NCBI GenBank assembly: GCA_045120955.1
Contig: JBGVFH010000071.1
Location: 23,631 to 87,630, forward strand
Source of the DNA: Eubacteriales bacterium
Lineage (GTDB): Bacteria > Bacillota > Clostridia > Oscillospirales > CAG-272
Direction of reading: 5' to 3'
DNA length: 64,000 bases
How positions within the stretch are numbered: position 1 is the first letter of the stretch; each line of letters opens with the position of its first letter. The notes beneath the pieces are model-generated. The model searched no databases. It was given only the letters and a program-made list of their open reading frames with translations, and was not told where the DNA came from. A program made the position numbers and the translations under genes. This document shows positions 37,079-51,474 of this stretch, piece after piece.

Positions 37079-37627
37079 GTGAATATTTTACCTGGTACTC
37101 TTATAGAAACCGGTAAACTGTCCGACGGGGATAGCCGAAAGATATTTGACAATATCTTTTCGTGCGGAGGACTTATGCTTTCTCAGGTATGCAACATGAC
37201 AGGGCTTGAGCCTTATACGGTTCAAAACTGGGTAAAGCGCAGATATGTTACAAATCCCAGAGGACGAATGTACTCGCAAGATCAGTTTTCACGCATCGTA
37301 CTGATAAATATGTTAAAGGAATCCTTGCATCTTGATATGATCGAGAGGCTGCTTTCCTATATAAACGGGCATCTTGATGATAACAGCGATGATCTGATCA
37401 CTGATTCAGAGCTTTATCATATGTTTGTGTCCTTGCTTGTAAAAATGGGTTCGCAATATGATTGCACGCAGGCGCAGCGGATCTCAGAGGAAATAACGCA
37501 AAGCTACAGCGAGCCTGTCGCAGGCGCAAGAAAACGCCTCGTAAAGGTGCTTGTTATAATGGCGCAAACATATTTCTCGGCAGAGCTGAGACGCGGCGCT
37601 GAGATGCTGATGAACGAGCTTAGCTGA
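37079..37627 (+). CDS. DUF1836-like (MerR-type HTH) protein
   Basis: 182 aa with a GTG start. The segment LSQVCNMTGLEPYTVQNWVKRRYV...YSQDQFSRIVLINMLK resembles the DUF1836 HTH region. The family call is from memory. Confidence 0.55.
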   Translation: MNILPGTLIETGKLSDGDSRKIFDNIFSCGGLMLSQVCNMTGLEPYTVQNWVKRRYVTNPRGRMYSQDQFSRIVLINMLKESLHLDMIERLLSYINGHLDDNSDDLITDSELYHMFVSLLVKMGSQYDCTQAQRISEEITQSYSEPVAGARKRLVKVLVIMAQTYFSAELRRGAEMLMNELS

Positions 37628-37663
37628 TTTGTTCCACTTATTGTATTATGGAGGTTGATATTT

Positions 37664-38314
37664 ATGCAGGCATGGTGGGATGCTCTTGACGTCTTGGGCA
37701 AAATATTTGCACTTATCGCTATTCCCTCGACGCTTATTTTAGTAGTGCAGACTATACTTATGTTTCTCGGACTCGGAGGTGACGGCGGAGCTGATGCCGT
37801 AGGGGAGGATATACCGTCAGAAATGCCGGATACTGATGTCCCCGGCGGAATTTTCGGAGATGACGTACCGGGAGGAACCGATATTGACGGAGATGTTTCA
37901 GAGGAGCCGGGACTTAAGATATTGTCGTTTCGAACGATAGTAGCTTTCCTTGCGGTTTTTGGTTGGGTAGGCATTGAACTGCTCAAGCTCGGAGCGGGCA
38001 GCGCTATAGCTATTACGGTCGGAATTGCAGCGGGGATCATTATCATGGTAGTTATGGCTCTGCTGATAAGGGAGCTGTTTAAGCTGCAATCAAACGGAAA
38101 CGTCGATATGAGAAACGCTGTCGGTGCATCGGGAACAGCCTATATTCCGATACCCGCCCAAAGAAGTGGAAAGGGAAAGGTTACCGTTACATTTCAAAAC
38201 ACATCTTGTGAATGTGATGCGGTAACGGACGAGAAGGAGGACATACCGTCATACAGCGAGGTGCTCGTAATAGGCATCAGCGGCAAGGATACTCTCGTAG
38301 TTAAGAAAAAATAA
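37664..38314 (+). CDS. NfeD/YqiJ-like membrane protein (flotillin partner)
   Basis: N-terminal TM helix, acidic Gly/Asp-rich linker, two or three further TM helices, and a C-terminal NfeD OB-like segment GTAYIPIPAQRSGKGKVTVTFQNTSCECDAVTD...VLVIGISGKDTLVV. Start at ATG 37664, with GGAGG 9 nt upstream. Confidence 0.7.
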   Translation: MQAWWDALDVLGKIFALIAIPSTLILVVQTILMFLGLGGDGGADAVGEDIPSEMPDTDVPGGIFGDDVPGGTDIDGDVSEEPGLKILSFRTIVAFLAVFGWVGIELLKLGAGSAIAITVGIAAGIIIMVVMALLIRELFKLQSNGNVDMRNAVGASGTAYIPIPAQRSGKGKVTVTFQNTSCECDAVTDEKEDIPSYSEVLVIGISGKDTLVVKKK

Positions 38315-38325
38315 AGAGCACGGGA

Positions 38326-38967
38326 GTGGATTTGCAAATGACAGAAGAAAAATACAAAGTATCGGATTTTATTTATGATTCGATGAAAAGCCTCAGACCG
38401 TATCTGCTGTTTAATGCGGCGGGCTATGTTGCATATGCGTTTACCGTCGGTCATATCATGTTGGATGAACAAGTATCGGTTGAAGCAAAAAACAGATATT
38501 TGTGCTTTTATTCCGCCGCTATGTTAGCTGCATTTTTGGCTGTTTTGTGCAGTCTTGCAAAGAATAATATAGCTCGGAAAACTGCTCTGATAAAAGCGTC
38601 AAGAGCGGATGATTTTGATGCAAAAGCGTATTATAAGAATACGGTCATAAGAAATATCTTACCGCTTTTTTGCGCAGGAATAGTTATACTTTTGCCATTT
38701 GCGATATTTTATATGCGTTGCGGCTACGGATATGAAAATTCGCTTGGAATTGAGAGGCTGTTTGCGGCAAATATGCTCTTTATGATACCGCTCGGCGGTA
38801 TTTTGGGAGTGATAGTGCAAAACATTCTTTTCTCGGGTGTGTATTCTCTGTATCTGTATAAACTGCAATGCCGTGAGCTTGCCGACAGAATGTGGCTCAA
38901 GGATGCGCCAAAGCAGGAAAAGGTCGAGCTTAAGCCGCTGAAAAAGGATAATTACAAAAATTATTAA
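38326..38967 (+). CDS. hypothetical polytopic membrane protein lying between nfeD and floT
   Basis: 213-aa ORF (start GTG 38326 or ATG 38338) with 4-5 hydrophobic helices. No family recognised. Confidence 0.6.
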   Translation: MDLQMTEEKYKVSDFIYDSMKSLRPYLLFNAAGYVAYAFTVGHIMLDEQVSVEAKNRYLCFYSAAMLAAFLAVLCSLAKNNIARKTALIKASRADDFDAKAYYKNTVIRNILPLFCAGIVILLPFAIFYMRCGYGYENSLGIERLFAANMLFMIPLGGILGVIVQNILFSGVYSLYLYKLQCRELADRMWLKDAPKQEKVELKPLKKDNYKNY

Positions 38968-39012
38968 AAGATTTTTTAATAATATATTAGGACATCAAAG
39001 GAGGAAATTGTT

Positions 39013-40437
39013 ATGGGTCCAATTATTATTTCATGTGTAGTCGCACTTGTCATCTTGATGATAATCATTTGGTTTTTTGCGCACTACAAACGCTGTCCTT
39101 CCGATAAGGTAATGGTTATTTACGGTAATATCGGTAAGAACAAAGACGGCACGAACAGAAGTGCAAAATGTATTCACGGCGGAGCTACGTTCATCTGGCC
39201 CGTGGTCCAGTCTTATGCATTCCTTGATCTTACACCTATATCCATTCAGGTCGATCTGAGAAATGCACTTTCACGCCAAAACATTCGTATTGATGTACCG
39301 TCCCGCTTTACCGTAGGTATCTCAACTGAGCAGGGAATCATGCAAAATGCCGCTGAACGGCTGCTCGGACTTAAGCTCTCCGAAATTCAGGAGCTTTCAA
39401 AGGATATCATCTTCGGTCAGCTTCGACTTATCATAGCAACGATGGATATCGAAGAGATAAACACAGACAGAGACAAGTTCCTAGTAGCTGTCAGCCGTAA
39501 TGTTGAGACAGAACTGAAAAAGATCGGTCTTCGCCTCATCAACGTAAACGTAACCGATATTACGGATGAATCGGGATATATTACAGCCCTCGGTAAAGAG
39601 GCAGCGGCTAAGGCTATCAACGATGCAAAAAAGAGCGTTGCAGAAAAGGACCGTGACGGTTCGGTAGGTGAGGCGCAGGCACGCATGGATCAGCGTATCA
39701 AGGTGTCTGAGGCTGACTCCGTAGCTATCAAGGGTGAAAACGAAGCAAAAATGCAGATCGCAATGTCAGAGGCAGCACTTCGTGAGAAGGAAGCAGAGGC
39801 TATGAGAATTGCAACATCTGCAGAAAAGATACAGGCGGCTCGTGCCCTTGAAGAGGCGTATGCCGCAGAAAAAGAAGCAGAGGATGCAAGACGCACCAAG
39901 GAACAGGCAACTCTTGAGGCAGACGTTATCGTAAAAGCAGAGATAAGAAAGCGTGAGCTCGAGCTTGCTGCAGAGGCAGAGGCAGAGCAGATAAGACGCA
40001 AGGCACAGGGTGAGGCTGATGCTGTATATGCAAAAATGGTGGCTGAGGCGAAAGGTATCGAGGAGATGCTGCGCAAGCAGGCTGCAGGTTTTGCGGAAAT
40101 AGTGCAGAGTGCAGGAGGAGATCCGAATGCCGCACTCAAGCTCATGATAGCAGATAAGCTGGAAGTGCTCATGCGTGTTCAGGTGGATGCTATCAAGAAC
40201 ATAAAGATAGACAAGGTTACTGTCTGGGATAAGGGAACTGGTGCTGACGGTAAAAACTCGACAGCAGACTTTATCTCGGGACTTATGAAGAGCGTCCCCC
40301 CGCTTGATGAGGTGTTCGGCATGGCAGGACTTTCTCTTCCCGAAATGCTCGGAAAGAAGCAGGAAGAGCAGGTAGAAGAGCCAAAGTCAGATGCTCCCAT
40401 CGAAACCACAGCGTCGTCAGAGACAGAGGAAAACTAA
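39013..40437 (+). CDS. floT: flotillin family (SPFH/band 7) protein
   Basis: 474 aa with an N-terminal membrane hairpin, an SPFH domain and a long Ala/Glu-rich coiled coil (EAEAMRIATSAEKIQAARALEEAYAAEKEAEDARR...). YuaG/YqiK-like. Confidence 0.88.
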   Translation: MGPIIISCVVALVILMIIIWFFAHYKRCPSDKVMVIYGNIGKNKDGTNRSAKCIHGGATFIWPVVQSYAFLDLTPISIQVDLRNALSRQNIRIDVPSRFTVGISTEQGIMQNAAERLLGLKLSEIQELSKDIIFGQLRLIIATMDIEEINTDRDKFLVAVSRNVETELKKIGLRLINVNVTDITDESGYITALGKEAAAKAINDAKKSVAEKDRDGSVGEAQARMDQRIKVSEADSVAIKGENEAKMQIAMSEAALREKEAEAMRIATSAEKIQAARALEEAYAAEKEAEDARRTKEQATLEADVIVKAEIRKRELELAAEAEAEQIRRKAQGEADAVYAKMVAEAKGIEEMLRKQAAGFAEIVQSAGGDPNAALKLMIADKLEVLMRVQVDAIKNIKIDKVTVWDKGTGADGKNSTADFISGLMKSVPPLDEVFGMAGLSLPEMLGKKQEEQVEEPKSDAPIETTASSETEEN

Positions 40438-40451
40438 ACAACTAAACGCAG

Positions 40452-40493
40452 TTTATCCGATGCAGGTATGCTCCATATTCTGCATCGGATAAA
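40452..40493 (+). other. perfect 14-bp-stem hairpin between floT and the downstream cassette
   Basis: TTTATCCGATGCAG / CTGCATCGGATAAA with a 14-nt loop. No T-tract follows, so read-through is plausible. Confidence 0.5.
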
Positions 40494-40514
40494 AATTATG
40501 AGGAGAGCAGCGTC

Positions 40515-41696
40515 GTGAACAGATCGTTGAAGATACTTTTGAATGTAACGGAATGTATAGCTTCCACTGTGATATATATATTTATTACAGCTTTTTTGTA
40601 CGCACTTAAACCTACAGAGGAGGCGGCATCAGATACATACCGCTTTAATATTTCACCGTATCTGAGCTTTTTGATAACGTTTTTTGCACTTTGTTCGCTT
40701 GTTCGTTTCTCATTTCTCTTTGACAAAGAAATGAAAGAAAAATTCGCCTCGGACGGTGACGGACTTTATACATACCGTGAGCATTTTCGTTTTTTGCTCG
40801 GTTTTGAAAAAACATGGATAGGACTTGTGTTTTCTGCTGTATTGTATTTGTGCTTGCCGCTTGAAATTTTGAGTATTCCGTTGTTTTACGGGACAGAACC
40901 AAGCATAGTTATCAAGCTCGCACTCTTTCCCCTTTATATGTGTATTGTCTTTGCCGTGCTGTTTTGGTCGTCTCGCTCTGCTGCACAATTCTGGTATGAT
41001 GATTCTCGGCGTATAAAAACAAAAAAATTTTATACCGCTTCCAACCGTATCCGTAAGACCGTTATGCTGATAATTTCATATTCTGTCGGCGGCGCATTGT
41101 TTGTGTATCTGGGGCACAGGGTTAGTCTCGCAGTAATGACAAATTCTTATTTGATATCAAGAAAAGCTATTTGGGCTGTGTTACTTTTCATAGTATTTAT
41201 AGTAGTTATTCCCGCACTTTACCGTCAGACAGGCTCTATACTGAAGCGAAAGAAATTTATAAAGAATTTGAAAAAAGTATGTGCGGAGCACCGTTGCTCG
41301 CTCTCAGAGATAAAGCGTCCGTACCGCTCGCTTTTTAAGCTGACTCACGGTTATGACTTCGACTTTGAACTAAACGGCACAAAATATGCGTGCAAGCTTC
41401 TGTACACCAAACACCGCCTGCGTCCGATCACTTTTTTTGAGAACGGAATGGCGGCACATGAAAACATCATAAAAGTAAAAAAGACAGAGCTGTTTCGAGT
41501 CAGATCGTGGTTTGAATACGGCTTTGATGCGGATGCGAAAAAGCTTTTGATAATCAATCCCATCCCCAAGACCGTGAACGTGAGCGAAAACGGAAAGACA
41601 GCCCTTATCGACAATGGCGACAGAGTAGGCGAATACAAGATCTACTCAGCTACTGCACTTGTCAACGCCATCGACAGAAATACACTCGAGAGATAA
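40515..41696 (+). CDS. hypothetical membrane protein, cassette ORF A (about 7 TM helices plus a soluble C-terminal domain of about 140 aa)
   Basis: 393-aa ORF with a GTG start and GAGGAG 9 nt upstream. Hydrophobic N-terminal two thirds. The C-terminus reads ...GYDFDFELNGTKYACKLLY...LLIINPIPKTVNVSENGKTALIDNGDRVGEYKIY... No family recognised. Confidence 0.7.
   Translation: MNRSLKILLNVTECIASTVIYIFITAFLYALKPTEEAASDTYRFNISPYLSFLITFFALCSLVRFSFLFDKEMKEKFASDGDGLYTYREHFRFLLGFEKTWIGLVFSAVLYLCLPLEILSIPLFYGTEPSIVIKLALFPLYMCIVFAVLFWSSRSAAQFWYDDSRRIKTKKFYTASNRIRKTVMLIISYSVGGALFVYLGHRVSLAVMTNSYLISRKAIWAVLLFIVFIVVIPALYRQTGSILKRKKFIKNLKKVCAEHRCSLSEIKRPYRSLFKLTHGYDFDFELNGTKYACKLLYTKHRLRPITFFENGMAAHENIIKVKKTELFRVRSWFEYGFDADAKKLLIINPIPKTVNVSENGKTALIDNGDRVGEYKIYSATALVNAIDRNTLER
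41545..41696 (+). repeat. direct repeat copy 1 (3' end of ORF A)
   Basis: Hand alignment to 42980-43131 gives 129/131 identical for the first 131 nt and 13/21 for the last 21 nt. The stop codons are aligned. Confidence 0.95.
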
Positions 41697-41715
41697 TGAC
41701 AGGAGACATGAGACA

Positions 41716-41984
41716 ATGAACGAAAAAAAGACGAAAGAGAAGTGCTGACATACGATTACGTCACGGCTTATTTGCGAAGAAAAGTAAAAGAAGAAATTGT
41801 CTCAGTAATAATTGCGTCTGTGGCGGCTGTGTTTTGCTTTGCTTTTACTTTTATTGTCGGGACTATCATTATATCGCGAGAACCTACTATCGTTTCGGTT
41901 TTTTATAGTATTTTGTTTATTGTTATACTCAGGATGTATTGCCTTATGCTATATAAAGCTATGGATACCTATCTGCAAAAATGA
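41716..41984 (+). pseudogene. small 2-TM protein, cassette ORF B, with the reading frame split at an A7 run
   Basis: AGGAG then ATG 41716 opens a 10-codon frame (MNEKKTKEKC*). The 80-codon 2-TM frame (41742-41984) has only a GTG with a weak SD and stays open back to 41712. The two frames are joined by -1 slippage, or by one extra A, at GAAAAAAAG (41722-41730). Confidence 0.4.
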
Positions 41985-42247
41985 TCATGAACCGTGACGG
42001 ATATTTTAAGGTTATAGAGGATACCGTAGTGCAAATAGGACCGAGCGAGCGCACAGGAAGATACAACCGGATATATCCGATATATTTTAAGGAAAACGGA
42101 AAAGCCATATGCAATACACAAAGATGGTATAAATATCTCTCTTAGGAAAGCAAGTGCATTCTTATTGTGTACGATAAAGATTACTATGCATTTAAATGTA
42201 ATATTGTAGCGGTGTATCCGTCGATTATGTACAGATACGAACAATAA
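41981..42247 (+). pseudogene. small soluble protein, cassette ORF C, interrupted by an in-frame TAG
   Basis: An ATGA overlap links it to ORF B. The sequence is 54 codons (MIMNRDGYFKVIEDTVVQIGPSERTGRYNRIYPIYFKENGKAICNTQRWYKYLS), then TAG (42143-42145), then 33 further open codons (ESKCILIVYDKDYYAFKCNIVAVYPSIMYRYEQ*). It was not in the ORF track because it falls below the length cut-off. Confidence 0.4.
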
Positions 42248-42258
42248 AGGAGAAGCTT

Positions 42259-42849
42259 ATGTCCGAGTACAGAATATCAAACTCAATGTACAAAAGAATC
42301 AAGGAGAGAAAAATCAGGCTCTACCTCTGGCTTGGAGTATGTGCAGTTATCGAGATCTTTATTATTCTCTTGTGTATATATTGCGGCAGAGACGGAATGA
42401 TTCTTTGCTGTCTGCTTGAGCCTGTATTTCTGTATCTTGTGTGGCGTTATCTCCGTCATAATATCAGAACCTTGTTTTTAAAGAATAAAACTGGTGTGCT
42501 CGAGAGGAAAATTTCCGATCGATGTGTCAACAGAAAGGGTGTTATCTCGGGTAACGCTTACGGTGGATGGAAAAGGGAAGTTGAGTATCTGCTAATTATA
42601 AGAACAGATAATAAAGAATACAGAATAGAGCTTCCCACAAAGGATTCATACCTTGCCTACAACGAGGGAGATGTGGTGCTATTTGCAGAATTTATGCCTT
42701 ATCCTATCGTTACGAGCAGGACTCCATCACTGGCTGTGTGCCCTCAGTGCGCATCCCTTCTTCACTACGAGGACGGCGCGTGTCACAGGTGCGGTCTTGA
42801 GGATATATATCCCGATTTTTGCAAAACTCCGAAATGGGAGAGAAAGTGA
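42259..42849 (+). CDS. hypothetical 2-TM protein with soluble beta-rich domain and C-terminal zinc ribbon, cassette ORF D
   Basis: 196 aa with SD AAAGGAG. Two TM helices, then ...EYLLIIRTDNKEYRIELPTKDSYLAYNEGDVVLF..., then CPQC-x12-CHRC. Confidence 0.7.
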   Translation: MSEYRISNSMYKRIKERKIRLYLWLGVCAVIEIFIILLCIYCGRDGMILCCLLEPVFLYLVWRYLRHNIRTLFLKNKTGVLERKISDRCVNRKGVISGNAYGGWKREVEYLLIIRTDNKEYRIELPTKDSYLAYNEGDVVLFAEFMPYPIVTSRTPSLAVCPQCASLLHYEDGACHRCGLEDIYPDFCKTPKWERK

Positions 42850-42858
42850 GGAAATAAA

Positions 42859-43131
42859 TTGAAATATCAAACAAGAGAACCCCTGGCGAGAAAGAACATT
42901 TACAATGAACTCGTACATGGATTTAATTTTGATATTGCGGGTGGTTGTATTACATCGATTGTTATCTCAGCTATGATGATTTTGATAATCAATCCCATCC
43001 CCAAGACCGTGAACGTGAGCGAAAATGGAAAGACAGCCCTTATCGACAATGGCGACAGAGTAGGCGAATACAAGATCTACTCAGCTACCGCACTTGTCAA
43101 CGCCATCGACCGCAACTGCCTCGACAGATAG
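42859..43131 (+). CDS. cassette ORF E: truncated, divergent copy of the C-terminal tail of ORF A
   Basis: 90 codons with a TTG start and GAGG 7 nt upstream. The last 49 codons are 47/49 identical to the end of ORF A. The N-terminal 41 codons are unrelated apart from HGFNFD vs YGFDAD. Confidence 0.5.
   Translation: MKYQTREPLARKNIYNELVHGFNFDIAGGCITSIVISAMMILIINPIPKTVNVSENGKTALIDNGDRVGEYKIYSATALVNAIDRNCLDR
42980..43131 (+). repeat. direct repeat copy 2 (3' end of ORF E)
   Basis: See copy 1. The offset between copies is 1435 bp. Confidence 0.95.
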
Positions 43132-43195
43132 TCGGTACAAGGCACAAAACGATGTCTGCCACATCTATCCCATTATTCATCAAAGGAGAAACACC

Positions 43196-43607
43196 ATGGT
43201 ATGTTCCAAATGTGGAAAAATCGTATCTGATGTAACCGTTTTTTGCCCGAGCTGCGGCGAGTCTATCGACCGTAAAGCGCAACACGATGGGCTTGTAGTA
43301 CATTCGGACGATTATTATCAAGTCAAAGACTACCAAAAAAGAGCAAAGTACGTTATGCTCTTTAATAATATCGTCATTTTTATGCGGCATGATATGGAGC
43401 TTGATATTCTCGCTTGGTGCAATATCAAAAGCGAATTCCGCAATAGAGCCTGAGATATCCGAGATGCGTCCGCCGTCTGAGAACGAGGAGATAGAAAAAG
43501 CAAGCTCAAAGATCAAAGCGGGAAAAATGATAGCTAAAATATCGGTCGGAGTCTTCATATTCAATTTCGTCTTAGGCATTGTTCTCGCTAAGCTGTTATA
43601 TCTCTGA
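43196..43607 (+). pseudogene. zinc-ribbon plus 2-TM protein, cassette ORF F, with the frame split near an A6 run
   Basis: AAAGGAG then ATG 43196 gives MVCSKCGKIVSDVTVFCPSCGE... This frame ends at 43453 in non-membrane-like sequence. The +1 frame is open from 43299 to 43607 and encodes two clean TM helices (LCSLIISSFLCGMIWSLIFSLGAI and ISVGVFIFNFVLGIVLAKLL). Removing one A from CCAAAAAAGAG (A run 43335-43340) fuses the two frames. Confidence 0.45.
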
Positions 43608-43762: not shown

Positions 43763-43812
43763 AAAAAAATGCGAGAGAAAGCTTTTTTAAAAAAGTTTTT
43801 TCTCGCATTTTT
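43763..43812. terminator. bidirectional intrinsic terminator closing the cassette
   Basis: About 17-bp stem ATGCGAGAGAAAGCTTT / AAAGTTTTTTCTCGCAT (two G-U pairs), with A7 upstream and T5 downstream. Confidence 0.75.
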
Positions 43813-49364: not shown

Positions 49365-49583
49365 ATGACAAAAACTTATAAAATTATAGGTGTTGACTGC
49401 GCAAACTGCGCCGCAAAAACAGAGGCGAGAATATTAAAGATAAAAGGAGTCAATGACTGCTCGATATCTTATATGACGCAAAAATTGTATCTTGAGGCTG
49501 ATGACGAGCGATTCGAAAGTGTGCTGCAAGAGGTATTGCGTGTTATAAAAAAGTATGAGCCGGACTACAAGGTGATACTCTGA
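49365..49583 (+). CDS. stand-alone heavy-metal-associated (HMA) domain protein
   Basis: 72 aa with a ferredoxin-like HMA fold and the metal motif GVDCANCA. Confidence 0.85.
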   Translation: MTKTYKIIGVDCANCAAKTEARILKIKGVNDCSISYMTQKLYLEADDERFESVLQEVLRVIKKYEPDYKVIL

Positions 49584-49596
49584 AAGAGGAAAATGT

Positions 49597-51474
49597 ATGG
49601 CTGAGATATATCGAGAAAACAAAAAAGAAATATTAAAGATAGCGGCAGGTACGCTGACGCTTATTTTGGCTTTTGCGTTAAATCTGCCGACAGACGGAGG
49701 CTTTGCGTGGGTATATTTTGTACCGTATATTATTTGCGGCTTTAACACTTTATACAAGATGGTACGAAACATTTTGCGTCTTGATTTTTTTGATGAGAAT
49801 TTTCTCATGGGCATAGCTACTATAGGTGCGCTGTGTACGGGCGAATATCCTGAGGCGGTGCTTGTAATGCTGCTTTACAAGGTAGGGGAGCTTTTTGAGA
49901 ATATCGCAGTTTCCAAAACCAGAAAAAGCGTGGCGGCTCTGAGCGAGATATGTCCGCAGAGTGCATGTGTTTACCGTGGTGAAAATTTGGTATGTGTGCC
50001 TGTAGAACAGATAGAAATATCCGACATTCTGGCTGTAAAGGCAGGGGAACTGATACCTGTTGACGGCGAGATATGTGAGGGTGTCACAACGCTTGATGCC
50101 TCAGCTCTTACGGGAGAGTCGCTTCCGCAGGAAAAGTCGGCAGGAGACAAGGTGTACTCGGGATGCATCAACATCAGCGCCTTTATCAAGGTGAGAGCGG
50201 AGAAAAAGGCAGCAGACAGCACCGCCGCAAAAATACTTGAAATAACAGAGAATGCGGCACGGAGAAAAGCGAAAACCGAAAAGTTCATTTCAAGGTTTGC
50301 ACGCATATATACGCCTGCCGTGGTTTTGGCAGCCGTTGCGCTTGCATTTATCGGACCGTGCTTTACGGGGGACTACGGTGCTAATTTTATACCGTGGCTG
50401 CACCGTGCGCTTATATTTCTTGTAGTGTCATGCCCGTGTGCCCTTGTAATAAGTGTGCCGCTCGGATTTTTTGCGGGTATAGGTGCTGCCTCAAAGCAGG
50501 GAATACTCATAAAAGGCTCGGGCTTTGTTGAGGCACTGTCAGAAGCGCACACGGCAGTCTTTGATAAAACGGGAACTCTCACAAACGGCAATTTTTCCGT
50601 CGTAGGAGTTACCTGTACGGCAGAAGTGAATGCTGATACGATTTTGCTCTATGCGGCATCGGTAGAAGCCGCCTCAAACCACCCTACGGCAAAGGCAATA
50701 GCAAAAAGCGTCGGCGATAAGCTTGCTTGCTCGGATATAAGCGAGACGGCGGGGGAAGGTATCACTGGCATTATAGACGGAAAACGCATCGCATGCGGAA
50801 ATCTCCGCCTTATGCAAAGAGAAGGCATTGATATAGGCGAGGATAATAGCGGCAATGATGCTTCAAGCGTCGTATATGTCGCATATGACGGCAAGTATTG
50901 GGGTCATATTGAGCTGTCCGACACACTAAAGCATGATGCCGCCGAAACGGTAGCGGCGCTCGGTGAGATAGGCATAGCAAGAACGGTAATGCTCACCGGA
51001 GATATGCAAAGCGTTGCGGCTCAAATATCCGAGAAAGTAGGGATAGATGAGTACATAGCATCTCTTTTGCCGCATCAAAAGCTTGAGCATATCGAGCAGA
51101 TGTGCGCACGACTTAAAAAAGGTCAAAGACTGATATATGCAGGCGACGGAATAAACGATGCGCCCTCGCTTTCACGTGCGGATATAGGAATAGCCATGGG
51201 TGGGCTTGGAAGCGATGCGGCGGTCGAGGCTGCTGACGTTGTACTCATGGACGACGATATTTCGAAGATCGCAAAGGCTGTCGATATATCAAAGAAGGCA
51301 ATGAGGACCGTGCGTTTCAATATTGCATTTTCTCTTGCTGTAAAGGCTGTCGTTATGTTGCTCGGTGTCGGGGGTGTTGCGGGAATGGGACTTGCGATAT
51401 TTGCGGATGTCGGTGTTTGCGTGATAGCAATAGTAAATTCGATGTCGTTGCTTTCGTATAAGACAAGGGTATAA
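49597..51474 (+). CDS. heavy-metal translocating P1B-type ATPase (Cd/Zn/Co type), lacking an N-terminal HMA domain
   Basis: 625 aa with TM CPC motif VSCPCALVISVP, phosphorylation site DKTGTLT, NHPTAKAI, GDGINDAP and a TM8 ADVG. Confidence 0.93.
   Translation: MAEIYRENKKEILKIAAGTLTLILAFALNLPTDGGFAWVYFVPYIICGFNTLYKMVRNILRLDFFDENFLMGIATIGALCTGEYPEAVLVMLLYKVGELFENIAVSKTRKSVAALSEICPQSACVYRGENLVCVPVEQIEISDILAVKAGELIPVDGEICEGVTTLDASALTGESLPQEKSAGDKVYSGCINISAFIKVRAEKKAADSTAAKILEITENAARRKAKTEKFISRFARIYTPAVVLAAVALAFIGPCFTGDYGANFIPWLHRALIFLVVSCPCALVISVPLGFFAGIGAASKQGILIKGSGFVEALSEAHTAVFDKTGTLTNGNFSVVGVTCTAEVNADTILLYAASVEAASNHPTAKAIAKSVGDKLACSDISETAGEGITGIIDGKRIACGNLRLMQREGIDIGEDNSGNDASSVVYVAYDGKYWGHIELSDTLKHDAAETVAALGEIGIARTVMLTGDMQSVAAQISEKVGIDEYIASLLPHQKLEHIEQMCARLKKGQRLIYAGDGINDAPSLSRADIGIAMGGLGSDAAVEAADVVLMDDDISKIAKAVDISKKAMRTVRFNIAFSLAVKAVVMLLGVGGVAGMGLAIFADVGVCVIAIVNSMSLLSYKTRV

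Follow-up and report, generated by a model that had tools for sequence, protein, structure and literature searches.

How did the 3' end of a membrane-protein gene come to stand twice in one locus, with other reading frames between the copies? The 64,000-nucleotide stretch of DNA analysed here (the window) comes from an uncultured Clostridia/Eubacteriales genome known from metagenomes, and is itself part of a metagenome-assembled genome. In it, the tail of gene A recurs beyond ORFs B, C and D as the 3' portion of a short ORF, E. An earlier note had offered three readings of this arrangement: a plain partial tandem duplication, an insertion of B-D at the 3' end of A with that end duplicated, and an alternative-C-terminus device. 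Gene A encodes a multi-helix membrane N-terminal half followed by a soluble α/β C-terminal domain (AlphaFold2 mean pLDDT 79.5) and adjoins a flotillin (Band_7) gene. Its family is uncharacterised: A had no match in Pfam, NCBIfam or PADLOC, a sequence-profile search of the PDB with the family returned none, and only 14 homologues were present in a set of 5.8 billion proteins. The C-terminal domain resembles the fold of RecU/Hjc-type nucleases only at a non-significant level. The tail is the best-conserved part of the family, and a scan of GTDB genomes found seven A loci with one tail each.

A repeat search of the window paired 41545-41695 with 42980-43130 (151 nt, 94% identity, spacing 1435), and all repeated 20-mers in the 64 kb derive from this one repeat, well above chance expectation. 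When 41545-41696 and 42980-43131 were compared base by base, they aligned without gaps and with 10 differences, distributed as 129/131 and then 13/21 identical positions (2/131 versus 8/21 differences; Fisher exact p = 1.3e-6). Both core differences are synonymous and fall at third codon positions (copy 1/copy 2: C/T at 41591 in codon 359, T/C at 41654 in codon 380), and the eight differences in the last 21 nt include the stop codon (TAA versus TAG). The encoded tails are identical at 47 of 49 residues and end in RNTLER and RNCLDR. The gapless 152-bp repeat, the two synonymous and eight terminal differences, and the shared tail ending in RN(T/C)L(E/D)R, as the earlier note had described them, were all reproduced, the last from the ORF translations. 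The features of the locus are collected in Table 1.

Table 1 Features of the A locus, in window coordinates (BC, D, F and zinc-ribbon denote genes found 3' of A)
Feature	Position	Strand	Basis
Gene A, 393 aa	40515..41696	+	ORF list
Haplotype patch divergent from 13 insert-free loci	41426..43181	.	mismatch map
Repeat copy 1, 131-nt core (A codons 344-387), assigned to the A-zinc-ribbon lineage	41545..41675	+	129/131 vs copy 2
Copy 1 end, last 6 A codons and stop (RNTLER-TAA), A-BC-D operon type	41676..41696	+	identity counts
BC pseudogene: ORF B (41742-41984), ORF C (41981-42145) and the stretch to 42247	41742..42247	+	
Gene D, 196 aa, intact; conserved A neighbour in other lineages	42259..42849	+	
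Chimeric ORF E, 90 codons, TTG start, GAGG 7 nt upstream	42859..43131	+	
Repeat copy 2, 131-nt core	42980..43110	+	129/131 vs copy 1
Putative illegitimate junction, TTTTG microhomology	42980..42984	+	codon-level comparison with L004 F and copy 1 context
Copy 2 end (RNCLDR-TAG), native A end of the A-zinc-ribbon type on its native spacer	43111..43131	+	
Zinc-ribbon/membrane gene, directly after A in insert-free strains	43196..43607	+	Pfam Zn_Ribbon_1
Terminator-like hairpin, first one 3' of A	43767..43810	+	consensus scan

The metagenomic origin of the window raises the prospect of an assembly artefact, and the junction between the truncated F-like gene (F', the first part of E) and the second tail is of the type that a simple partial tandem duplication makes. 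The junctions are, however, present in two other assemblies, and the arrangement is thus not an artefact. One contig (L012, Logan SRR25030053), whose dataset may be that of the window contig, matches 41624-43009 at 100% identity and covers both the junction from tail 1 to B and that from E to tail 2. The other (L013, ENA ERZ27303126, k=141) is 98.1% identical to 42428-43423 and runs in a single contig through the 3' part of D, E, the entire second tail, the spacer and the zinc-ribbon gene, so that copy 2 is completely spanned; because its sequence differs from that of the window, it is independent of it. Plain tandem duplication fails as the whole story, since the sequence 3' of copy 2 is no copy of that 3' of copy 1 but corresponds, in spacer and gene alike, to what stands after A in insert-free strains, and such a duplication could be a first step at most. 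We assign very little probability to either explanation.

Comparison with related strains lacking B-D, proposed in the earlier note, revealed a presence/absence polymorphism. Thirteen same-species loci, drawn from many samples and with flanks ~99.5% identical to the window, lack B-D, and in them the zinc-ribbon gene comes directly after A; the insert-free 3' end occurs in 11 of the 12 A variants of the 90% cluster. The window has no mismatches to one of these loci (L001) from 40679 to 41425, dense mismatches from 41426 to 43181 and then ~1 per 500 nt, and several further recombination tracts are visible in the same mismatch map. The divergent patch covers the final 271 nt of A and everything from there, through the insert and copy 2, to nucleotide 50 of the spacer. 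Twelve insert-free loci are almost invariant over it, and the window minus the insert differs from them throughout. Identity to the insert-free type is even across the patch (104/119 upstream of the repeat, 111/131 in each core, 17/21 in the end of copy 2), and colinear homology to that type runs from copy 2 on into the downstream genes. Since the insert-free tail differs from each window copy at 20/131 positions, the insert-free strains are not a simple deletion product of the window arrangement.

The two ends of the repeat match different relatives. The last 21 nt of copy 1 are identical at 21/21 positions in L014, 20/21 in L029 and 19/21 in L027 but at 13/21 in the insert-free type, whereas the copy 1 core is closer to the insert-free type (111/131) than to A genes preceding BC/D (88-96/131, 68-73%). 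Conversely, the end of copy 2 matches the insert-free type at 17/21 and the BC/D type at 12-14/21, and from there the spacer and next gene line up colinearly with those of the insert-free loci. The two cores, like the 119 nt upstream, lie 13-15% from the insert-free type and 27-33% from the BC/D-type genes, distances that place both cores, on sequence comparison, in the A-zinc-ribbon lineage. With the insert-free type as outgroup, each core difference is private to one copy (one change per copy), so the two cores were once identical. Across loci, A ends in ...NTLER where BC/D (/F or G) lie downstream and in ...CLxx where other genes do; each A preceding BC/D ends T-L-x-R, and the ending matches the downstream gene at all loci examined. 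The zinc-ribbon membrane gene follows A in two lineages of the ...CLxx type, and BC and D are conserved A neighbours in seven other lineages. The recombination boundary that the earlier note had seen in the 131/21 switch is upheld by this match of the two ends to two operon types. Its suggestion that both tails are or recently were translated is not: the synonymous pattern does not show current translation, as the core changes are private and the end differences are inherited from two functional A lineages. The T/C residue at A ends also corresponds with the downstream operon type.

Between the copies (41697-42979) the only ORFs are BC, D and F', and none contains a recombinase domain. Frame reading shows two lesions in BC, a -1 frameshift within the A-run at 41977-41981 and a TAG at 42143 in place of the Glu of relatives; with BC a pseudogene, the structure is by now in decay. 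Intact BC homologues of 179-212 aa are found in L003, L027, L028 and L029, and the 210-aa L003 gene aligned to 41936-42241 by tblastn (31%, 2e-16). A kinship between BC and F was considered and was not detectable (E = 0.06). D combines a membrane N-terminus with a C-terminal CPxC...CHxC zinc-ribbon-like motif; its homologues follow A in L003, L004, L006, L014 and L027-L029, and the family, with 12 clusters and a nearest member at 74% identity, was found nowhere except beside A. Searches with BC, D, F and neighbouring genes against Pfam, NCBIfam and PADLOC returned only a generic zinc ribbon and Band_7. The GC content of the insert is not distinctive (BC 0.34-0.38 versus flanks 0.40-0.45). Further downstream, the zinc-ribbon gene carries an 11-nt deletion after 43363 in the window, leaving ORFs of 85 and 72 aa; it is intact (140 aa) in eight loci and has the deletion in six, and its homologue in L007 has 144 aa. 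As a consensus scan found no terminator between A and 43767, A-BC-D-E probably share a transcript with the zinc-ribbon gene.

The earlier note had called the sequences upstream of the two copies unrelated. This holds for the bases (9/30 matches over 30 nt upstream, and 7/40 over 40 nt downstream) but misses that copy 2 is preceded by 41 codons from the 5' end of an F-like gene, so that the downstream ORF is what remains of a fusion rather than another A-like gene. Codons 1-41 of E correspond to the 5' end of F, as represented by the gene after D in L004, and codons 42-90 to the displaced original tail of A. The E N-terminus matched the N-terminus of the L004 gene colinearly in BLASTP (12/41 identities, E = 3e-6) and in tblastx (E = 0.001), and its assignment to F is based on these 12/41 identities with one distant homologue. 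An origin from an internally deleted copy of the 'HGYDFDFELNG' region of A was also considered (5/9 residues, E = 4.9), and the F-like match was preferred. In the databases, E is represented by the exact protein and one variant; no other orphan tails were present in the protein set searched. At the junction, F-like ...ATGATTTT joins A's ...AAGCTTTTGATA in a non-homologous joint at TTTTG, a short microhomology common to the A and F-like contexts. The same codons of the L004 gene read ATGATTTT (GCC ATG ATT TTT CTT), and the parental F sequence at the microhomology is deduced from this distant homologue.

We consider it probable (about 0.65) that the repeat is a scar, left by a 3'-end displacement involving both alternative architectures of a single operon; as such it is an ordinary kind of mosaic, neither a switch nor a mobile element. 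A BC/D-type fragment, running from the final 21 nt of A through the spacer, BC and D to F codon 41, would now lie inside a zinc-ribbon-type gene. Its left boundary, at repeat position 131, would be a homologous crossover in the conserved A tail, and its right boundary an illegitimate join at TTTTG between F codon 41/42 and A codon 344/345; the 131 nt would be present twice because the illegitimate join lies 131 nt upstream of the crossover. The reading frame of A would thereby stay complete with the substituted end RNTLER, and the original end RNCLDR, now in the 3' half of E, would have been shifted 1435 bp downstream together with its spacer and the zinc-ribbon gene. In a first step, homologous replacement would bring in the BC-D-F block, crossing over on the left where the conserved tail ends. 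In a second, original-type DNA would be taken up, with homology anchoring it downstream and an illegitimate join on its left (homology-facilitated illegitimate recombination). Later, the finished haplotype (41426-43181) would have moved by homologous recombination into a genome ~99.5% like the insert-free strains.

The presence/absence polymorphism, the patch, the identity of the pieces, the mosaic tail ends and the microhomology are all in the data, and this two-step route is the cheapest that we can build with standard events, whose order and number we infer. A window-type haplotype lacking the insert did not turn up, and the succession of events therefore goes unobserved. None of the sequences on record is a donor, the nearest D being that at 74% identity and no intact F coming close to the E N-terminus, and scans of JGI metagenomes with window-type tail DNA and the D family gave no match. 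That the patch moved into the window lineage rather than out of the majority lineage is judged from allele frequency only. Of the readings in the earlier note, the second, in which B-D inserted at A's 3' end and duplicated that end without an integrase, comes closest to the comparative data.

Later gene conversion between tails of different origin could explain the close match of the cores just as well. Such tails might have been joined by one illegitimate event, or by Campbell-type integration of a tail-BC-D-F' circle, with the first 131 nt homogenised afterwards and the 131/21 switch marking the end of the conversion tract. The geometry would be the same as for 3'-end displacement, circular intermediates are the proposed model for Rhs tip displacement (PMC2935791), and conversion tracts end where homology falls, the last 21 nt here being only 62% identical. 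Against this, one extra event is required, conversion must have run from copy 2 to copy 1, and the equal distances of the cores and the upstream 119 nt given above are expected from a single lineage. We judge this explanation unlikely, if far from negligible.

We see only a slight chance that the locus is an alternative-C-terminus or cassette-exchange device in which the repeats recombine to remove B-D reversibly and give A its other end. Direct repeats of 131 nt placed 1.4 kb apart are able to recombine, and they remain a substrate for RecA-type deletion; the insert also varies in presence within the species, and a plausible ribosome-binding site precedes E. Yet deletion would be irreversible, recombinase, invertase and inverted repeats are all absent, and the two ends differ by T/C and E/D only. 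The predicted recombinant (core NVSENGKTAL with RNCLDR) was seen in 0/12 A variants across >36 contigs, and the insert-free allele, at 20/131 differences from both copies, is not that product either. BC is moreover already a pseudogene. The locus thus has neither the recombinase nor the recombinant form of A that a programmed system of the shufflon or phase-variation kind would show.

Transposons and insertion sequences carry a transposase and terminal inverted repeats and generate a short (2-14 bp) duplication. The locus has no transposase, no flanking inverted repeats and a duplication of 131-152 bp, far in excess of any target-site duplication. In favour of a prophage-like element supplying a replacement 3' end, a substitute 3' end, an insert and a displaced original 3' end reproduce the icd-e14-icdC geometry. 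According to PMC13626634, which relays Hill et al. 1989, e14 of E. coli K-12 is a 15-kb prophage with its own site-specific recombination system. The likeness extends to an insert-supplied 3' end that keeps the frame, an original end left as a pseudogene fragment on the far side, differences that are mostly synonymous or conservative, and a chimeric gene that excision would recreate. The site is likewise empty in relatives, the empty-site allele on record here being a diverged haplotype. Unlike e14 as outlined there, our insert holds 1.4 kb of ordinary operon genes and no recombinase. The insert measures merely 1435 bp without integrase or transposase, its genes are chromosomal A neighbours in other lineages, its right end interrupts a gene at codon 41, and blastn found no match in phage or plasmid collections. 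A mobile element of either kind has next to no probability in our view.

Rhs and CDI proteins share a conserved core followed, after a PxxxxDPxGL or VENN motif, by a variable C-terminal toxin domain. Rhs/CdiA domains and a toxin tip are absent from the A locus. Where Rhs/CDI loci have a cognate immunity gene directly after each tip, it has BC, D and the zinc-ribbon gene, which encode small membrane proteins; none is a demonstrated immunity gene. A itself lacks any Pfam, NCBIfam or PADLOC match, and the exchanged end is only 6 codons long. The 3'-end displacement that we favour nevertheless has a close counterpart in the displaced C-termini and orphan tips of Rhs genes, to which CDI orphan modules are related (Jackson et al. 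2009, PMC2935791). There, a conserved part of the gene serves as anchor for incoming DNA that takes the place of the 3' end, and the incumbent end is displaced downstream with a near-identical conserved piece, creating a direct repeat; the displaced fragments are mostly silent and decaying (PMC2935791). Copy 2 is likewise a partial copy of the conserved region with a different end. In contrast to Rhs, the duplicated piece here is the best-conserved part of the protein, the replaced tip of 6 codons carries two amino-acid differences, and a single displaced fragment is present, with no orphan tail found in any other lineage. Homology-facilitated illegitimate recombination was put forward to account for displaced T6SS effector-immunity modules in Vibrio cholerae (PMC5361080). 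The A locus resembles that case in having what would be a single homologous anchor, one microhomology join, an old 3' remnant downstream and no integrase, and differs from it in that the process here is deduced from the product and a 131-nt duplication would need two steps or a sister-chromosome event.

The locus offers a clean, dissected example of an operon mosaic arising without mobile-element machinery: a single homologous crossover in the final stretch of a gene that is conserved, plus one microhomology join, would suffice to leave a direct repeat and a leftover chimeric ORF. It also carries a warning for annotation, since the 90-codon ORF E and ORFs B and C are remnants and not genes. 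More tentatively, and with the odds well against it, the A tail may be a recurrent recombination anchor for the exchange between strains of small membrane-protein gene sets (BC, D, F, G, zinc-ribbon) 3' of a flotillin-linked membrane protein, the last A residues co-varying with the set (T-L-x-R with BC/D, C-L-x-x otherwise). If this is true, A and its downstream genes would form a polymorphic, possibly conflict-related or partner-specific module, of which E would be an exchange by-product. The analysis brings out a rare, unnamed family linked to flotillin operons in which the downstream gene set and the last residues of A co-vary, and this correlation could guide work on the binding partners of the A family.

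Base-by-base comparison of the two copies bore out the 152-bp direct repeat that the earlier note had described at these coordinates, including its division into a near-identical core (first 131 nt) and a divergent end (last 21 nt). A repeat search of the window paired 41545-41695 with 42980-43130 (151 nt, 94% identity, spacing 1435). The core differs at only two positions, 41591 (C/T) and 41654 (T/C), both synonymous and in the third codon position, compared with eight in the end (Fisher p = 1.3e-6). The sequences flanking the copies are unrelated on both sides, and no other 20-mer occurs twice across the 64-kb window.

Features of the repeat locus (window coordinates)
Feature	Coordinates	Description
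Repeat copy 1	41545-41696	Codons 345-393 of ORF A (40515-41696)
BC pseudogene	41742-42247	ORFs B and C, fragments of a 179-212-aa membrane-protein gene
D	42259-42849	Intact member of a 196-201-aa family
Repeat copy 2	42980-43131	Final 49 codons of the 90-codon ORF E (42859-43131)

The window comes from a metagenome-assembled NCBI contig of 89 kb. The arrangement is not an assembly artefact, a possibility that the earlier note had wanted excluded. A Logan contig (L012, SRR25030053) matches 41624-43009 at 100% identity, its ends sitting exactly where 31-mers cease to be unique; it may derive from the window's own dataset. An ENA contig (L013, ERZ27303126, k=141), 98.1% identical to 42428-43423, spans copy 2 in full, reaching unique sequence at either side, and encodes a variant of the 90-aa ORF with one residue changed.

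The majority arrangement in the species, found at thirteen loci from many samples, places a zinc-ribbon/membrane gene immediately after A and lacks B-D. One such locus, L001, is 98.9% identical to the window up to 41697 and 99.5% from 43151; mismatches are absent from 40679-41425, dense in 41426-43181 and then fall to about 1 per 500 nt. With the insert removed in silico, the window is colinear with 12 aligned majority loci and diverges from them over exactly 41426-43181. Because the divergence is confined to this interval, where the majority loci are almost invariant among themselves, the window appears to carry a discrete foreign haplotype inside a conserved background. A deletion in the window allele is ruled out as the source of the majority allele, since the tail of the latter departs from both copies at 20/131 positions. 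In the spacer between A and the zinc-ribbon gene (window 43132-43195, L016 5183-5321), the majority type has 75 nt absent from the window, which include a GC-rich stretch and, after it, a T-run. The zinc-ribbon/membrane gene itself (43196-43607) has an 11-nt deletion (GCCGTAATAGG) after 43363 that leaves 85-aa and 72-aa ORFs; the deletion is polymorphic in the species, being present in the window, L001, L002, L020, L022 and L024, with the gene intact (140 aa) in L013, L016, L017, L019, L021, L023, L025 and L026. Further tight substitution clusters between near-identical strains, at 49574-49744 and, against L002, at 39537-39630 in the flotillin gene (the latter mostly at every third base), point to other short recombination tracts in the species.

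At all loci examined, the final residues of A vary with the gene that comes next. Where BC or D lies downstream (seven lineages), A ends N/K-T-L-x-R; where zinc-ribbon or other genes follow (majority type, L007-L011), it ends C-L-x-x. The last 21 nt of copy 1 match BC/D-type loci at 21/21 (L014), 20/21 (L029) and 19/21 (L027) positions but the majority type at only 13/21, whereas those of copy 2 match the majority type at 17/21 and the BC/D type at 12-14/21. Each 131-nt core, like the 119 nt preceding copy 1, shares 85-87% identity with the majority type but only 58-76% with BC/D-type genes. Copy 1 thus reads as a mosaic of an A-zinc-ribbon-lineage core and an A-BC-D-lineage end, and the 131/21 switch, rightly suspected to be a recombination boundary, as a crossover between two operon architectures. 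When the majority type serves as outgroup, both core differences turn out to be private, one to each copy, so the cores were once identical. The 21-nt DNA encoding the RNTLER end is nearly invariant (19-21/21 in three lineages) next to sequence only ~70% identical, which suggests constraint, e.g., translational coupling or partner contact.

Distant relatives (L003, L004, L006, L014, L015, L027-L029) carry, after A, one or both of the genes represented in the window by BC and D. B and C, previously read as separate ORFs, are pieces of one gene broken by a -1 frameshift in an A5 run (41977-41981, where homologues point to A6) and by a TAG codon (42143) at a position that is Glu in homologues. 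As BC is already inactivated twice, the block is decaying, perhaps with the exception of D. The earlier note had described the sequences upstream of the two repeat copies as unrelated to each other. Far from random, the 41 codons preceding copy 2 are colinear, N-terminus to N-terminus, with F, the gene after D in L004 (BLASTP E = 3e-6; tblastx E = 0.001). At the junction, F reads GCC ATG ATT TTT CTT, the window GCT ATG ATG ATT TTG ATA, and A AAG CTT TTG ATA, placing the joint within TTTTG microhomology at 42980-42984. From this match and joint, E appears to have the opening 41 codons of an F-like gene fused to the tail of A. E may still be translated, as a GAGG motif lies 7 nt upstream of its TTG start and no terminator-like site was found between A and 43767. 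The synonymous pattern need not mean that both tails are translated, as had been proposed, because the end differences were inherited from two functional A lineages. In an AlphaFold2 model of A (mean pLDDT 79.5), the tail contributes strands 342-347, 354-358, 361-364 and 374-378 and helix 379-387 to a C-terminal alpha/beta domain; alone and fused to half a membrane helix, it would be unlikely to fold.

Taken from the sequences, the locus shows the marks of one homologous exchange ending at tail position 131 and one illegitimate join, mediated by microhomology, between F codon 41/42 and A codon 344/345; 131 nt are duplicated because the join sits upstream of the exchange point. In the simplest series of standard events, homologous replacement would first have put a BC-D-F block behind an A-zinc-ribbon-type gene, its left crossover falling where the conserved tail ends. 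Uptake of original-type DNA, with a homologous anchor downstream and the illegitimate join at its left end, would then have deleted the remainder of F, and ordinary homologous recombination, with crossovers near 41426 and 43181, would have moved the finished haplotype into its present background. Two possible alternatives, the integration of a small circle by a Campbell-type event and gene conversion at a later stage, would each yield the same picture at the cost of one more assumption. As the earlier note had stated, no integrase or transposase is present at the locus, nor are inverted repeats, and nothing similar was found in phage or plasmid collections.

The geometry of the locus corresponds to Rhs 'C-terminal displacement', in which incumbent tips, pushed aside by incoming ones, retain a near-identical stretch of core (PMC2935791). 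It also fits homology-facilitated illegitimate recombination as proposed for the displacement of T6SS effectors (PMC5361080) and is similar to icd/e14/icdC (PMC13626634). The locus belongs to none of these systems: Rhs/CdiA domains, a variable toxin tip and a recombinase are all missing, and the exchanged end is six codons.

The A family is rare and unnamed: a set of 5.8 billion proteins contains 14 clusters and the GTDB genomes seven loci, all from uncultured Eubacteriales/Clostridia. Within the 90% cluster of A, 11 of 12 variants share the 3' end ...TVSASENGRISL...RNCLDR; the window's alone ends ...TVNVSENGKTAL...RNTLER. A belongs to a conserved operon (37079-41696), where it follows a DUF1836/MerR-like gene, two unnamed membrane proteins and flotillin (Band_7). 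Against the closest lineages with the operon (L003, L004, L006), flotillin is 89-91% identical and A only 46-54%, its N-terminal half only 30-42%. The C-terminal domain gave weak, non-significant fold matches to RecU/Hjc-type nucleases. A 187-aa short A, with one membrane helix and the C-terminal domain, directly follows the flotillin gene in L028 (848-1411) and L029 (2932-3495; same sample as L001), so the multi-helix N-terminal half is dispensable or separately encoded in some lineages. In L026 (ENA ERZ27297635 k141_76121), nt 1-98 are unrelated to the locus and meet A internally at about codon 247; the contig is either a chimeric assembly or a record of a further rearrangement in this gene.

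The repeat is a recombination scar that includes a chimeric pseudo-ORF, in a gene family that is rare, uncharacterised and linked to flotillin; the feature is real, explainable and of low general interest, and the co-variation of the last residues of A with its downstream partners is the one mildly intriguing lead.
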